DNA of 63,665 nucleotides, counting the filler, from Rozella allomycis CSF55 (taxonomy: Eukaryota), in assembly GCA_000442015.1 (NCBI GenBank). It is 4 parts of 4 records of this genome, joined end to end, with 100 filler letters (N's around TTAATTAATTAA, not from the genome) between each part and the next. Parts side by side here need not be neighbours in the genome. Positions count along the whole stretch, not along the records: positions 1 to 23,034 come from KE560601.1; 3 more parts are not named here. One strand, given 5' to 3'. Below are positions 14,058 to 32,966 of the stretch, one piece after another. The position numbers and the translations under genes were made by a program. A model generated the notes under the pieces. That model ran no database searches and was not told the DNA's origin. It was given only the letters and a program-made list of their open reading frames with translations. Within the stretch, counting starts at the first letter, position 1, and every line of letters starts with the position of its first letter.

Positions 14058-15212
14058 TTATGACTTAGTGATAATGGATTCATAAAGTCTTAATAAAACA
14101 CTTTCCTTAATGAGATAAGGTACGTCAAGTATGCCAAGCGGGAACCTAGATCCTTGAAACAATGCGTCGGGTAGATTTGCATGTGAGATCTTTTCTTCGT
14201 TTTCTTTCGTGTCATCTTTTACAAAATATTCATCGGGTTTCGCATTTTTAAGAAGAGTCTTTTCGAGAATATCTTGCATTGACATAAATGGCGCTACATT
14301 CATCCAGAGTGTTTCAGCATTTTCGGCATTCAATGCTTTCTGTGCAGCCATTGTAAATGAATGAAGAAGCATTGACAATCCCTTATGGCGAGCTGGGTTT
14401 TCCAAAAGATTTATAGGGTTGCGGAAAATTCCTCTGTTTTCGTAGTAAGAAAACCCTAGAGTGTCTAAATGATCTTTGCAAACGTTTGTGCTTCTAACAA
14501 CCATGATTAAAGGCTTTAGAGAATCTATATATGATACTGGGATTGGTGAATTCATTTCTCCAAAGTTATATTTTCCCGTAATTGGTTCGCTAGAGATATA
14601 TGCCACATAATCTCCGATAGAAAATACAAAACCAGCTACCCCACCGCCTGCTCCATCCAGAATCTCCCTTGTCTTGCCATTGAACTTTTCGTGCCATTCA
14701 GTTCTTCGACTTGCTTGTATTTCCATGTACTTTGTGGCTTTATTACTTGATATGCCAGAAAAATGGATAAAATTTTGTGCAAATGTAGCGTAGTCATACC
14801 ATGATCCTTTGTCATCGTCTATTTTTTCGAATCCTAAATAAACCGTCCCGGTCGGCAGGTTTGCTTCACCTACAAGGACACCTGATGGAAGCTTTCTAAT
14901 ATTAAATCTGGTAAAATAATCGTCTTCGTCCTTTTCATGAGGCACATATGGAACATTATTTATCTTATGTTCATCTTTTCCTGAGATACCTTCATTTTCA
15001 TTAGAACGGTTCGCTGGATATGAATTACTCTTGTTTTGGTTTTGGCCATTTTTTCTTGAACTGCTTTTCTTTTCAAGATGTTTTTGTTCAGGTGATCCAC
15101 CAAAAGACAAAGTAAATGCCAAGGACAAAACTAAAAGCAAAGTTGAAATGAAAACGATAACGTATTTCTTCTCCATAGCGAAGCTGGGACAGTTGGTGGC
15201 GCTGCCCCGCAT
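14058..15212 (-). CDS. Lineage-specific secreted or signal-anchored protein
   Basis: 384-aa intronless ORF, N-terminal hydrophobic segment (YVIVFISTLLLVLSLAFTLSF); true start possibly at MEKKY. Confidence 0.7.
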   Translation of the reverse strand: MRGSATNCPSFAMEKKYVIVFISTLLLVLSLAFTLSFGGSPEQKHLEKKSSSRKNGQNQNKSNSYPANRSNENEGISGKDEHKINNVPYVPHEKDEDDYFTRFNIRKLPSGVLVGEANLPTGTVYLGFEKIDDDKGSWYDYATFAQNFIHFSGISSNKATKYMEIQASRRTEWHEKFNGKTREILDGAGGGVAGFVFSIGDYVAYISSEPITGKYNFGEMNSPIPVSYIDSLKPLIMVVRSTNVCKDHLDTLGFSYYENRGIFRNPINLLENPARHKGLSMLLHSFTMAAQKALNAENAETLWMNVAPFMSMQDILEKTLLKNAKPDEYFVKDDTKENEEKISHANLPDALFQGSRFPLGILDVPYLIKESVLLRLYESIITKS

Positions 15213-15603
15213 AATTATAGAAAGGTATTTTTATCTAACGTATAAATATAGTAAGTAGACCATACCTTGATAATATTCTGAGCATGTTTCGAAAATAGCG
15301 CTAAAGCAAATTCGGGACGTCCCATGAATACGAGCAATATTGACAGAAAATTGAGAAAAATGAATTTACACTTTGCAAAATAGTCTCGTAGTCTGAAGAT
15401 ATTTTCATAAATATTTTATGTAATGCATAGTGATCTTCAAGAATTGATTTATGCACGAAGGATGATTGATCATAGCCGGCGCCGCTAAATTTTGATGTAT
15501 CACAATCACTAAAAAATCCAATTCCATTATTCTAGGTAAATTTTTTATTAATAAACTCCAAGTAAAATTAATAAAGTATTTCTAGCTTTATCAAGCTAAA
15601 AAA

Positions 15604-15628
15604 TGGAGTTGGAGGGTATCGATCCCTC

Positions 15629-15660
<32 letters not shown>

Positions 15661-15676
15661 TCTGAGCTACAACCCC
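15604..15676 (-). tRNA. tRNA-Ala(AGC)
   Basis: GGGGTTGTAGCTCAGATGGTAGAGCGCGCGCTTAGCATGCGCGAGGTAGAGGGATCGATACCCTCCAACTCCA; cloverleaf, G3:U70, T-run terminator. Confidence 0.97.
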
Positions 15677-15771: not shown

Positions 15772-17563
15772 ATGAGGCAATACTCAACATTCCTGGCGAA
15801 TAGTCATTTTAGCAAAACAATTCCCAAAACAAAGCTCTTTCTGAACGGCGAGTTTGTTGACTCGAAGGCTACCCATTGGTTCCCTGTTCGAAATCCAGTA
15901 CTCATGTCTATTAATATTCACATATTAGGCTACCCAAGAAATTGTTAGTTTGACCCCTCAATGCACAAATGAGGAGCTTTTAGAGTCCTCTCGAATCTCG
16001 CAACTTGCTTGTCGCGAATGGAGGAAAACGACTATTCTAACAAGACAAAGAAAAATGTTGGATCTGCAACATTTAATTAGAAATTCTATCGTATAACGCA
16101 CTTAATTGTCTGATAGGATGACATAGCGAAGTCTATTGTTCAAGAGATGGGGAAAACACTGAGTGATGCCAAGGGAGATGTTCTTCGGGGCCTGCGTAAA
16201 TATGTTCAATTTTAGTCACAGAGGTTGTCGAACATGCATGTAATATCACCTCATTGCAAATGGGAGAAACTCTCGAAAATGTATCTTCTCATATGGATAC
16301 CTATACAATTAGGCAGCCTCTAGGAGTAACAGCAGGTATAAAGATTTAGATTAATATTAAAGGCATCTGCCCTTTCAATTTCCCTGCAATGATACCATTG
16401 TGGATGTTCCCTTTATCTATCGCATGTGGAAACACAATGATAATAAAACCATCAGAAAGAGATCCTGGGGCAATGATGATATTAGCCAAACTAGCGAATG
16501 AAGTAGGTATCCCTAAAGGGGTTCTCAATGTTGTCCATGGAGGCAAAGAGACTGTCGAATTTCTCTGCAAAGATAAAAATATAAAGTCCATATCTTTTGT
16601 TGGATCAGATAATGCTGGAAAATACATACACTCCACTGGAACATCTTATGGCAAAAGAGTCCAAGTAAATCGTTTTATTAATTACAATTTGGCCAACATG
16701 GGAGCAAAAAATCATGGAGTGGTCATGCCAGACGCCAACAAAAACGATGCTTTAAATGGTCTTGTTGGCGCTGCATTTGGCGCTGCTGGACAAAGGTGTA
16801 TGGCATTAAGTACTGCCATATTTGTTGGTGAAGCTAAAAACTGGTAAGTCTCTTGTTCTGAAAAATTTGAGGATTCCTGAGTTAGTAGAGCGAGCAAAGA
16901 AATTGAATGTAAATGAAGGGAATGTAGAAGGTGCTGATCTTGGACCAATGATTTCCCCAGAGGCAATAAAGTTGTAAATTAATTATAGGCTAAAACACGT
17001 GCGTGCAATCTGGTTCAATCTGCAGTTGATGAAGGTGCTTCATTACTGTTAGACGGTCGAAAGATTAAGGTAACATTTAACTCGGTCTATAAACAAGGTT
17101 GTCGGGTATGAAAATGGGAACTTTATGGGACCCACTATATTATCAAATGTGAAAGTCTCCATGAAAGCTTACAAGGAAGAAATATTTGCGCCAGTTTTGC
17201 TCTGCATTGAGGTTCCGAACTTGGATGATGCAATTGAACTCATAAATAGAAACCCATATGGGAATGGAACAGCCATATTTACTCAATCAGGTGCGATAGC
17301 GAGAAAATTTCAGACTGAGATCGACGTAGGCCAAGTATAATATAATGTGAATCTTTATGTAGGTGGGTATAAACGTCCCAATTCCTGTCCCTCTCCCTAT
17401 GTTCTCATTTACTGGTTCAAGAGGCTCTATCTGTGGTGATATTAATTTTTATGGAAAATCTGGAGTAAATTTTTATACTCAAATTAAGACAATTACAAGT
17501 CAATGGAAGGTTGAGGATTCCTCCCATACAAAATCGGCCTTGCACATGCCTGTTATGAAATAA
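15772..17563 (+). CDS. ALDH6A1: Methylmalonate-semialdehyde dehydrogenase
   Basis: [65 protein letters not shown]; 9 small introns incl. one GC-AG and one probable GT-TG. Confidence 0.97.
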
Positions 17564-17656: not shown

Positions 17657-20126
17657 ATGTCGCTACGAAGGAAACCAGTAGACTTTGATGCAGTTTGGGG
17701 TATTTTCGAAAAGAATATAACCAAGTTATTTGAATCCAGTGAAGAAGGAACAGTCCAGGCCATGGACCTTACACAGTATTTGAGTATAAGCACGTTAATA
17801 GAATGGTGTATGAAATGTGTAACGCATATCCAAACTCTTTTTTCTCAGAGTTGAAGAACAAGATTTCGAATTTTCTTTCAGCACAGGCTATCAAGCAAAG
17901 AAAAGTAATAATGATTGCAATACCTACAATGCAAGGCTATAATGAAAGATGTGGATATGATCAAAAAGTATTCAAACGAGTGGGATGTGTATTATAATGC
18001 ATTGTGTTTGTTAAATACTGTGTGTTCGTATTTGAACAGGTGCATTTTGATGAAAAAGGAATCAGATGGGGCAGGATCAAGTGGGCCAGATTTCTATACT
18101 ATAGATATTGTAAACCAATTATGTTCGTATTAGTAGATTGGAAAGAATATATGGAGGGAAAATGTCATTTTATGGATTAAAAGAAACTTTTCAAACAAGT
18201 TGGTGTCGCTTTTACTGTCGTACATTGAAGATGATCGAAGTTCTGGATTTAAAGATAGCAAGCATGCAAATTGTGCTATTAATTCATTTGGTAATCAGCG
18301 ATGAAGTTTTTAAAGTAGTTTTGAGTGATAATGATCCTTTGAACTCTATTAGATTTTACATTGATGAATTTGAGAATTTGATGCTTCAAGAAACTGAAAA
18401 GTATTATAAAAGCGAAGGTAAGACTAATATAACAAATATGAATATTGAATCATTTATGGATGTTGTAAATTGAATTTTTGTGATGGAATTAGGCTTTGAG
18501 AAGATTGGCAGAGGAAAAGGAACGAGCAAATCGATATTTTAAGTTTTCATTTGACAAAGTTGTAGAAGTTTATATTGATCAAGTTATTATTACGAATCAA
18601 AAGTTTATTCAAGAAGAATTTCAGAAATTTGTCGCTAATGATTCGTTTATAGAAATGGAAAAGGCTTATAATTTGTTAGTTCTTGTGAATGAAGGGATTA
18701 ATCCCTTGTTGATTAAATTAAAAGATCATATAGTTAAACTGGGAAGAGAAATCCTGGGAGGGCTTGGCGATGTGGTTATTAAAGATGCTAAACCATTTAT
18801 TACAGCAATGTTAAACTTGCATAATAAATATGATTATCTTGTTTCGCAACATTTTAATAAAGATACCAATTTTGAAACAATATTAGACAAGGTAAACTAC
18901 TTGACAATATTTAATAGGCATTCAGAGAAATAATTAATGACAGAAAAACTAACAAATTTATAAATGCGCCAGAGAATTTAGCTCGCTTTTGCGATACCAT
19001 TTTAAAGAGGAATTCTAAAGTTTCTCTGACAGAGGCGGAAATTGAAGAAAATTTGAGCAACGTGGTAAATTAAATCCTTCAGTATAATATTTGATTATAA
19101 TATTTAAATATGTGGATGACAAGGATGTATTTTCGCAATTTTATTCAAAATTTTTTGGAAAGAGACTAATTCAAAAGAGTTCTGTTTCAATGGAATGTGA
19201 AGTTGGCATGATAACAAAATTAAAAGTATTCAGATTACTAAATTTAGTAAAGGATGTTTGTGGATTCGAATATGTTTCCAAATTACAGAGAATGTATACA
19301 GATATAACAGTTAGTGAGACAATGCACGAAAAATTTCTTCAAAATTACAAATCCTCTCTTTCAAGTAATCTCAATTCTAATCTATTTTAGATGATTTTGA
19401 GTTTGCTATATTAACCGCAGGATCATGGCCAAGCGCATATCAAAACAATCAAGAGTTTATCCCTCCCTTTGAACTTGGCCAATGCATTAAACAATTCCAT
19501 GATTTCTATGAAAAAGAACACAGCGGTCGAAAGTTAACTTGGCTTTACAATCAATCTAGATGTGATTTAAAATTGACTGGGTTTGATAAACGCTACGAAC
19601 TACAAGTCTCAGTCTTTCAATCTTCAATATTACTAACACTAAACAAAGAAGGAAAGATACAATTACATCAAATAGCCGAAGAAACAAAACTCCCTATTCA
19701 CGAAATCAAAAGGAATATCAAACCTTTATTAGAATTAGGAATTATTCTAGAGAACGAAAATAATCAAGAAATTTCAATAAACGACAACTTTTCCCACAAA
19801 AGAGTAAAAATCAAGGTTCCTTCTATTGCCATCAATGAACCAAATGAAAAGGAAAGAGATTCGGTCAAAAAAGCTGTCGAAGATGACAGAAAAATGTACA
19901 TACAAGTAATAACTTATAACTGATAAAATAGGCTTCCATTGTTAGGATCGCTAAAGCAAAAAAGGAAATATCACACAATGACCTTGTTCAAGAAATTATA
20001 TCGCACGCAAAACCCCAGTTTTTACCCTCCATTGCGTTAATCAAATCTATGATTGAACATTTGATTGAAAAACAATTTCTTGAAAGGCATCCGTCAGAAA
20101 AAGGAAAATACATTTATGTCGCCTAA
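17657..20126 (+). CDS. CUL2: Cullin-2
   Basis: N-terminus MSLRRKPVDFDAVW and VYEMCNAYP resemble CUL2 (MSLKPRVVDFDETW, VYALCVAYP); FKYVDDKDVF, SGRKLTWL, IVRIAK neddylation site, ends YIYVA; 10 introns. Confidence 0.85.
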
Positions 20127-27275: not shown

Positions 27276-30200
27276 CAGTAAGTTTGTGTGTATGGGTTTA
27301 GAGGCCAGTGTGAGTGTATACATGGTTGGAATGTTTTGAGTTCGCCGTTCGTGGAAGATGAATACATGTTTATTATGGAGCGGAGCTATATTTCTTTTAA
27401 TTTGGAGAATCGGCTTGGAACGAGGCCGTTTTTGGAGAAGATTGAAAAGAAATGGATTCTGTTTCAGTTATTGAAAGCTGTGTCTTCGCTGCACAATAAG
27501 AATGTAATTATTGCTTTTGTGTGATATTAGATTGTGCATGGAGATATCAAGAGTGAAAATGTATTGATTTCTACGGGCGGATGGGCGTACTTGTCTGATA
27601 TAGGAAACTACAAGCCTACATTTCTTCCTGAAGTATGACAGAAATCAATTAAATGAAATAGAATAATCCATCTGATTTTTATTTGTTTTTTGATGCTTCG
27701 GAGAAAAGGTCGTGTTGTATTGCCCCTGAAAGGTTTTTCAACCCATCTTCGCATAAGGAATCTGCGGCGTATGGATTTGATTTGAAAAAGGCGATGGATA
27801 TTTTCTCGTTGGGGTAATTTTATTGTTTAGGGTTAAATTGATGTGTAGCTGCGCATTTATTTTTGGAGGAGCCGTTGTTTACGCTGTCTAGTTTGTCAAA
27901 GTATTATTCTGGTGAGATTGATGTATCAGAGAGACTTAATAAAATAGAGGACGAGGGTGTTACAGTATGAGATTGAATATTCAAAGATAGAAAATGATTT
28001 TGAATATGATTGATCCATTTCCTGAAAACAGACTTTTGATTGATGAATATTTTGAGGTTTNTTTGGGGTAATTTTATTGTTTAGGGTTAAACTGATGTGT
28101 AGCTGCTCATTTATTTTTGGAGGAGCGGTTGTTTACGCTGTCTAGTTTGTCAAAGTATTATTCTGGTGAGATTGACATAACAGAGAGACTGAATAAAATA
28201 GAAGATGAGGATGTTACAGTATGAGATTGAATATTGAAAGATAGAAAATGATTTTGAATATGACTGATCCATTTCCTGAAAACAGACTTTTGATTGATGA
28301 ATATTTTGAGGTTTTTAATTCAATTTTTCCAGATTATTTTTATAATTTTTCTTTTGAGTACATTGGATCTTTAATTGCGTCGAAAACAGTAGAAACTTTG
28401 GATGAGAAAATTCACAAAATATTTAACGATTTTGATAAAATTTTATGCTCTTTAAATATTTCTATTGATGATGTTAAAGTTGAATGCTATGAAATTGAAA
28501 TTCCAAATGTTAAAATACCACGAAAACGTCAATTGAAGTCTGATGGAGTGTTAATCTTTTTGAATGTTATTTTTTCGTTTCTTCCATTGTTGAATAACTT
28601 GGATACAATTGAAAAAGCTGCTGAGATTATTTTTGTGCTTGGATTGTTAGCGAGGGATGAAATAATCCTTGAAAGAATCGTTCGTTATCTGGTTTTGATT
28701 TGTAACCACACGAATNTCAACGATTTTGATAAAATATTATGCTCTTTAAATATTTCTATAGATGATGTTCAAGTAGAATACTATGAAATTGAAATTCCAA
28801 ATGTTAAAATACCTCGAAAGCGTCAATTGAAGTCTGATGGAGTGTTAATCTTTTTGAATGTTATTTTTTCGTTTCTTCCATTGTTAAATAACTTGGATGC
28901 AATAGAAAAAGCTGCTGAGATTATTTTTGTGCTCGGATTGTTTGCGAGGGATGAAATAGTCCTTGAAAGAATCGTTCGTTATCTGGTTTTGATTTGTAAC
29001 CACACGAATGAATCTTATTTGATATCCAACTGTGTTTATTATATAACATGTTTAATGGAAAGTATTGAGAATGTTCCAAAGTTTGAAGTTGACTTATTTT
29101 TGGAATATTTGTTTCCCGCCCTTTCTCATCTAGTTTCCCATCCAGATCAATCAGTGAGATTCTGCATGGCCAAACATTTACCCTCTTTAATTAAAGTTGC
29201 AGAGAAATTTTTAAATATTAGTGATGAAATAAACAGTTCAGTTAGTAGCAACAGATTTTCTCAGTCAGATTTGTTTTCAGATGATTTTAGCATTAATCGC
29301 CCATTTGATTCTGGTGTTGGACATTTAAGACAGCAAGTTGAAGAGATGATTCAATTGCTTGTTGTTGACAATGATGTTAACGTTAAAATTAAAGTTGTTG
29401 AATCGCTTGGATTTTATTTCAACTTTTTCACGAATCAAAAGACTAGAGACACTATAATTTCACATGTTATAACGTTTTTAAATGAACGGAAATGGGAATT
29501 GAGAAGCGCTGTGATATTCTCATTGAAAGATGTTGCAAACTTTGTTGGTCAATCAACATTTGAACAAATATTTTTGCCTGTAATTCTACAAGGGTTATTG
29601 GGTAATAAGATTGAATGAAATGAATAGATGAGGAAGAGTGTGTGATAATAACAACAATTAAAACTTTGTCTCATCTTTCAACTAGTTTGAAACCTTTGGT
29701 GTTTAAGAAATTCATCAATAAAGTAACACCCTTGTTGGTTCATCCTGATTTTGAATTAAGAAATTGTAAAATTCAAATTTAAACATTAAAATTAGCTGCG
29801 ATTGAATTTATTTTAAATTTGTATGAAAATTGTGATTCAATATTCAAACTTTGCTTGGTTATTCCTTGTTTAGATTTATATTTATCAAAACCTTTAATCA
29901 AGATAAATTTTGAATTAATTCATGAATTTTTAATTCCACCAGTAGAAATTTAATTGATTTCATTCATTAAAGATTCCAACTGAACTTTACAATTATGCAG
30001 CTCAATGGTATTTGAAATCTAAAGATTTGTTCTTGATGGATGATGAATCAGAAGAATACAGGCGAATGATCACAATGGGAATGACGCCCCTGCAAGAGAA
30101 ATTTCTTCTCTTGTTGAAACCTTTTTATAGAAAGCCTTCATCACTAAGTTTAGAAACTGGATTTATTTCACTTGATCCTAAAGACATTAAATCGTTTGAC

Positions 30201-32160: not shown

Positions 32161-32966
32161 ATGCAATTAATAGACGACGAAAGTTTGCAGAGCGCTATTT
32201 CATTCCTTAATAATTGTAATGACGAGCTGGATTGGGGTGAAGATAGTGTTCCGTTGCTATTCTTGGGTAAGCTACTATATTTTGGCCATTGATAGACACT
32301 GTGAATAGGGAAGTTCTAGGCCAGTTTCCGCATGAAATGTTTACCAGCTGGGACATTATCATCGATTCTCCCAAACCACTTGAGACAATCAAACGTATAC
32401 TAAAAGAGGGTGCAAGTGGGGAGGAGGAAAAGGTAATAGAATATCATATGTACATATATGAATATCATCAAAGAAATTCAAACTTGGAAAAGCTTTCCTA
32501 AAACTGTTACAGCAGATATTGTTCGAAATGTTATTGATAAATACCCTAAAATCGCCGCGGAACTTATACTAAAAGCAGTACAATCGGAAAGGGCTCCTGA
32601 ATTTTACAATCTTTTGATAAATCTTGATATTAGTCTTCATTCCTTGGACATGATGAAGCAATTGCTATTCAAACGCAGTATATATGTCCCTATTGAAACT
32701 GCGTCGCTCTATTTAACCAATGGTATGGACTTCATAAGGTTAATAGCGGAAGAATCGAAACAGCACCGTTCTGTAAGATTGGTAATATTTATAATCTAAT
32801 TAATTTGATGATGTGCTTATTTCTTAAATCGGTTTTACCCGAATTCAATGAAATATTGCAGGACATATTTTTGGAATTGGAAACATTCGCTCTTGAATTC
32901 TCTAGAGTTAAAGAGGCGGCCGAAATATTTCAATATATAAGTTTGAAAAAGAACCAAATAAAATAG
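32161..32966 (+). CDS. CNOT11: CCR4-NOT subunit 11
   Basis: LINLDISLHSLDMM, LYLTN, QHRSVRL-MCLFLKS, ELETFALEFSRVKEAAEIF match the NOT11 C-terminal domain; 3 introns (two probable GT-TG). Confidence 0.85.

Follow-up and report, generated by a model that had tools for sequence, protein, structure and literature searches.

A 27-nt stretch within the MMSDH (ALDH6) gene of Rozella allomycis is very probably an ordinary tiny U2-type intron that ends in TG, with enough transcripts spliced there to yield normal enzyme. Judged from genomic sequence, it is most likely an obligatory intron and one member of a genome-wide class of TG-acceptor introns. The gene lies on the plus strand at positions 15772-17563 of the window (the whole stretch of 63,665 nucleotides that was analyzed, consisting of joined parts of the CSF55 assembly) and comprises 10 exons encoding 514 amino acids. 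Intron 5 (16665-16691, plus strand) starts with the donor GTAAAT (16665-16670), ends with AATTTG, of which the last three letters form the TTG acceptor (16689-16691), has an A+T content of 81%, and contains no AG. It is located in phase 0 between a Q and an A codon and can be translated without a stop as VNRFINYNL. The first-pass annotation had described an in-frame, stop-free, AT-rich GT..TTG stretch without AG in a motif that is normally uninterrupted, and both parts of this description are borne out: composition and phase are as stated, and none of the 117 readable non-Rozella homologues (119 retrieved) carries an insertion at this site. Removal of the 27 nt together with the eight other introns gives an open 514-amino-acid protein with the uninterrupted conserved motif, which aligns to the solved mitochondrial MMSDH along nearly its entire length. 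A deletion of 27 nt restores the protein in this way at just three placements (AG..TT, GT..TG, and TA..GG), and GT..TG is the sole one among them with a normal donor.

The eight other introns (15898-15928, 16091-16116, 16196-16221, 16336-16362, 16844-16871, 16963-16988, 17070-17097, and 17335-17362, all plus strand) are 26 to 31 nt long, comprise seven GT..AG introns and one GC..AG intron, and were all recovered by the profile aligner. The public gene model, P0006, mis-splices two of them, the 26-nt GC..AG intron at 16963-16988, whose GC donor was missed, and intron 9 (17335-17362), with losses of 13 and 3 residues. It also retains VNRFINYNL, as had been foreseen for automated annotation, which was expected to treat the 27 nt as coding. 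Conservation of the intron position was uninformative, since only 4 of 80 metagenome MMSDH loci had well-flanked intron calls, none of them at the 27-nt position. Upstream of the gene and divergent from it lies a 390-codon intronless frame with a hydrophobic N terminus and no Pfam match (14058-15230, minus strand), and a tRNA-Ala gene (15604-15676) is located between the two.

The nearest downstream AG (16703-16704, plus strand) lies 13 nt past the TG, and joining it to the GTAAAT donor would define a 40-nt intron and shift the frame. Canonical alternatives that stay in frame require a GTTT or GCAA donor and come at the cost of conserved residues. One of these, a 33-nt intron that starts with the GT at 16672, ends with the AG at 16704, and has the product RVQVNPKNH, combines GT..AG ends with an intact frame, but its GTTT donor occurs in none of 840 modelled introns, and it would remove a G and an A that vary little or not at all across 70 aligned sequences; we regard this intron as extremely improbable.

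A further explanation is an error in sequencing or assembly, or a dead gene, and the assembly does contain Ns and local duplications. This explanation is hardly credible, however, because TG was the only reading of 16690-16691 in contigs of all four DNA runs, which by itself largely refutes an error. The assembly may derive from three of these runs; the fourth, X6, comes from another sample and study. Across about 1.7 kb, X6 differs from the window at 28 positions; within the acceptor only the -3 base is changed (ATG in place of TTG), and the TG is kept. Among the differences listed, those in MMSDH coding sequence comprise 16 synonymous and 3 replacement changes (pN/pS 0.054, binomial P = 2e-8). 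MMSDH is thus under purifying selection between haplotypes, and the predominance of silent changes indicates that both haplotypes, each with the TG-ending intron, have kept a working gene. The open frame likewise speaks against a dead gene, as does the finding that this is the only locus of the MMSDH type among the three Aldedh loci found. Runs X1 and X2 contain a second haplotype at 16283-16394, which makes up roughly one quarter to one third of the depth and has six differences in common with X6; the region is otherwise uniform. The record behind P0006 was rejected as independent support for the T; P0006 occurs on two contigs, and at 23,034 nt the longest of them equals the first contig of the window in length, so that its independence is not clear.

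Two sets of introns describe the splicing rules of this genome. For the homology set, ten dynein heavy-chain loci were aligned to 150 homologues with introns of 20 to 250 nt allowed. This gave 159 intron calls, 113 of them well flanked, of which 112 were GT..AG; the remaining one was called as TT..AG and can by eye be read as a canonical intron of 28 nt. All 83 single dynein introns fall within 26 to 31 nt. The second set of about 900 introns comes from a self-trained gene model applied to 651 kb, a non-random sample amounting to 5.5% of the 11.86-Mb, 1059-contig assembly; because the model is self-trained, some circularity affects its statistics on length and on the A, but not those of the dynein set. 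Modelled introns begin with GTAA, GTAT, GTAC, or GTAG, with GTAA in 641 of 840. The first AG ending at base 26 or later is the one used in 905 of 912, and AGs ending at bases 24 to 25 are often skipped. Base 23, counted from the donor, is an A in 74% of the 913 AG introns and in 78% of the 83 homology-defined ones, compared to about 33% at nearby positions. MMSDH intron 5 fits these rules in its length of 27 nt, its GTAAAT donor, and its A at base 23 (16687, plus strand), the putative branch adenosine. With the last two bases scored as neutral, the intron model places it at the 69th percentile of AG introns. The U2 snRNA of Rozella has the standard branch-pairing sequence.

The long dynein introns have a structure of their own, as 25 of 28 are head-to-tail chains of two to five complete 26- to 31-nt introns with zero-length exons between them (G000 contigs C826, C255, C699, C549, C662, C355, and C720; loci L041-L058). 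Genome-wide, the tandem-array pattern matched 295 times with AG, compared to 69 times when the AG was placed off register as a control. These chains suggest stepwise splicing; none was called within 400 kb of C861 or in the window. TG junctions inside such arrays were also considered, but most of the 85 matches to the corresponding BG pattern looked by eye like chance combinations of exon and intron, and they were set aside. Inspection by eye additionally revealed candidate 2-nt exons, in which two tiny introns are parted by GG, at C805:15000-15054, C645:41725-41778, and C712:12019-12078 (all G000, minus strand).

When each non-AG dinucleotide was allowed alone and with equal prior in the 651-kb gene model, TG received 16 calls (14 strong, 192 bits), while the maxima for the other 14 dinucleotides were 7 calls, 3 strong calls, and 55 bits; CG and GG, with two calls each, were not above background. 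The sample thus contains 16 further GT..TG introns beside 913 AG introns, and with the MMSDH intron included TG ends 17 of 930 introns (1.8%). Thirteen of the 16 shift the frame and the other three contain stops, so reading through the intron cannot explain them. No AG ends at bases 26 to 33 of any of the 16, and in 15 of them no G from base 26 onward precedes that of the TG end. A23 is present in 14 of the 17 TG introns, compared to 8 of 22 other forced donors. A Pfam scan of thirty flanking exon pieces matched both flanks for 7 of the 16 candidates, with four exact joins, two within 1 to 2 positions, and one rough join; the remaining nine are without two-sided support. An earlier TG is skipped by 28 of 481 longer AG introns, and in these gene models AG appears to be preferred where it is available.

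Some results point the other way. None of the 113 well-flanked dynein introns ends in TG (by hand calculation, an outcome with a chance of about 13% at a rate of 1.8%), in-frame stop-free 27- and 30-mers inside predicted exons contain no excess of TG ends, and the ab initio model itself did not call MMSDH intron 5.

Several members of the class can be assigned to genes. The cullin gene located 2.4 kb downstream of MMSDH has a 29-nt GT..TG intron (19065-19093, plus strand) that shifts the frame and contains an in-frame stop. It was placed by all three references, also at a penalty of -60, and joins Pfam Cullin positions 388 and 389; the public model takes the next AG instead and loses ten conserved residues. 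In the HMG-CoA lyase gene, a TG intron was placed exactly with 79 bacterial references, again also at the -60 penalty. The CNOT11 gene contains a 26-nt GT..TG intron (32782-32807, plus strand; Pfam CNOT11 positions 81 and 81 on the two sides; next AG 54 nt on) and a 28-nt GT..TG candidate (32433-32460, plus strand) with a Pfam match on the downstream exon only. A kinase/HEAT gene, presumably Vps15-like by its motif, has a 27-nt GT..TG intron with in-frame stops and no Pfam match on its flanks (27814-27840, plus strand), and a near copy of this intron at 28068-28094 is part of an apparent assembly duplication.

Observations beside these loci include a possible 29-nt GT..CG intron (27316-27344, plus strand) located just ahead of the start that was modelled for the Vps15-like gene. 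Short local duplications beside single Ns at 27814-28200, 53468, and 61816 look like assembly artefacts, and gene models are broken there. The first aligned intron of the HMG-CoA lyase gene (L112, G000 C861, minus strand) can be read in two ways, as a 25-nt intron that ends in AG and leaves one residue too many, or as a 28-nt intron that ends in GG and fits exactly; by this alignment, a GT..GG intron is possible there.

The GT..TG intron that the first-pass annotation had implied for MMSDH therefore gains support from its length, donor, A23, restoration of the motif, and persistence of the TG in a diverged haplotype, and above all from the 16 further predicted GT..TG introns that preclude read-through. 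The main competing explanation is that a former intron had its acceptor destroyed by a change of TAG to TTG and now stays in most transcripts, giving a working enzyme with a 9-residue insertion. For a spliced TG intron, being both in frame and stop-free is a coincidence of roughly 1 in 10 (8 of 83 and 94 of 912 introns after a change of AG to TG), and MMSDH intron 5 was selected for study partly because it has these properties. The change from TAG to TTG would also have taken away an in-frame stop, the 27 nt are stop-free in X6 too, and VN, the first two inserted residues, could replace AN. In the microsporidian E. cuniculi, splicing of short introns stays below 20%, according to the available portion of that report (PMC6349667). 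Against this stand the absence of the insertion from every readable homologue and the TG introns elsewhere that cannot be read through. The predicted fold of P0006 drops below pLDDT 50 at residues 264-274, whereas the control P0052 has a modelled strand in this segment, with blocks at pLDDT 87-96; the comparison is weakened by the two other mis-splices in P0006. We consider predominant retention unlikely. The TG introns closed to read-through make TG splicing the simpler reading, and some retention may accompany it; partial retention of MMSDH intron 5 is possible and may be tolerated, given that the intron is in frame and stop-free.

A further alternative is that TG is used only with the aid of the AG 13 nt downstream, in the style of human TG-AG tandems, with some transcripts taking the AG and being degraded. 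This AG is inside the 28-nt limit given in the accessible text of Szafranski et al. (PMC2374985), and among the 16 other TG introns 10 are likewise followed by an AG within 28 nt. The remaining six, including those of the cullin and HMG-CoA lyase genes, have none. A 40-nt intron would exceed the observed length range, and the AG offers no productive alternative, neither in MMSDH, where the frame is shifted, nor in cullin, where 10 conserved residues are deleted. A need for the downstream AG is thus very unlikely, and we know of no route by which RNA editing could convert TG to AG.

Among known intron types, the 27 nt have the genome-consensus GT donor of U2-type introns, and the protein is restored by their removal, but the terminal AG is lacking; with TG in all four DNA runs, the intron is a variant rather than a canonical member of the U2 type. 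The U12-type donor consensus is RTATCCT, and all 17 TG introns begin with GTAA. A U6atac search gave one match below the cutoff (G000 C12:4427-4533), and a second U2AF35-like protein, which we take to be ZRSR2-like, is encoded at L297 (G000 C861:599000-601000); together they hint at remnants of a minor spliceosome.

Loss of U2AF35, Slu7, or Prp18 was considered as a cause of TG use and rejected, since all three are present and the Prp18 gene is intact. The first half of the conserved Prp18 loop (L303:1680-1871, G000 C1022) is retained, while one inserted residue and several changes set its second half apart; with yeast as the single comparator, this difference is no more than a lead. Two residues just upstream of this loop differ between the public protein P0277 and the assembly. 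According to the available text of a yeast study (PMC10711555), Prp18 imposes a minimum distance of about 10 nt between branch and acceptor and suppresses BG acceptors via its conserved loop; yeast without Prp18 or the loop uses BG acceptors and sites whose distance to the branch is below 10 nt.

In the mechanism that we propose, A23 would be the branch point, with its position set by the distance from the donor, and the first splicing step would proceed without an AG requirement. In the second step AG would be preferred, and where no AG lies 3 to 8 nt past the branch, TG would be docked with its last G kept; the acceptor would be the first suitable G 3 to 8 nt beyond the branch. More speculatively, the altered Prp18 loop would allow branch and acceptor to lie so close together and would also make TG tolerable. 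A wild-type, distance-measuring spliceosome that routinely uses TG in essential genes, even where AG is lacking in the vicinity, because of an altered Prp18 loop, as a natural counterpart of the yeast prp18 mutants, is conceivable but less likely than not.

TG acceptors have been described elsewhere at low frequency. In the portions of the reports available, they amount to 0.02% in human and 23 of about 60,000 in fly, 22 of these with an alternative AG (PMC2374985, PMC4528330, PMC4176328), and to 22 of about 92,000 in Ganoderma (PMC11590231). Those of the human and fly type are said there not to function constitutively and are tied to a nearby AG (PMC2374985, PMC4528330, PMC4176328). As far as these texts go, the Rozella introns have in common with human and Drosophila U2-type TG introns the donor, the TG end, and the retained last G, and differ from them in frequency (about 1.8%, 17 of 930), in being needed for the protein, and in often lacking a nearby AG. 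With yeast Prp18 or loop mutants, as presented in the same partial source, they share non-AG acceptors that end in G, acceptors separated from the branch by fewer than 10 nt, and the acceptance of GAG and AAG. BG use in yeast is mutant, low-level, and alternative, whereas TG use in Rozella is apparently wild-type and obligatory, with Prp18 present and its loop differing (PMC10711555). Very short AT-rich introns, a branch A fixed from the donor, and a standard U2 snRNA are also features of Stentor (PMC9505925) and of myxozoans and dicyemids (PMC13644364), with introns of 15 to 16 nt and 20 to 27 nt, respectively, compared to 26 to 31 nt in Rozella; the accessible text of these reports makes no mention of a TG acceptor class. 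In the literature accessible to the search, we found no report of TG acceptors, an A23 ruler, or tandem mini-introns in Rozella, and the available parts of PMC8476143, PMC6349667, and PMC7072748 contain no description of TG acceptors or tandem mini-introns in this organism. TG acceptors and a fixed branch geometry are thus known elsewhere; required use of TG at about 2% in essential genes would go beyond the published view.

If this reading is true, about 2% of Rozella introns are obligatorily cut at TG in essential genes, which would amount to a natural experiment on the way 3' splice sites are checked by the spliceosome and would offer one named protein change, the Prp18 loop, for testing that check. 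It would also mean that gene models are wrong at many sites in a key early-branching relative of fungi, as are both public models examined here, and such faulty models would affect claims of gene loss or damage in the lineage.
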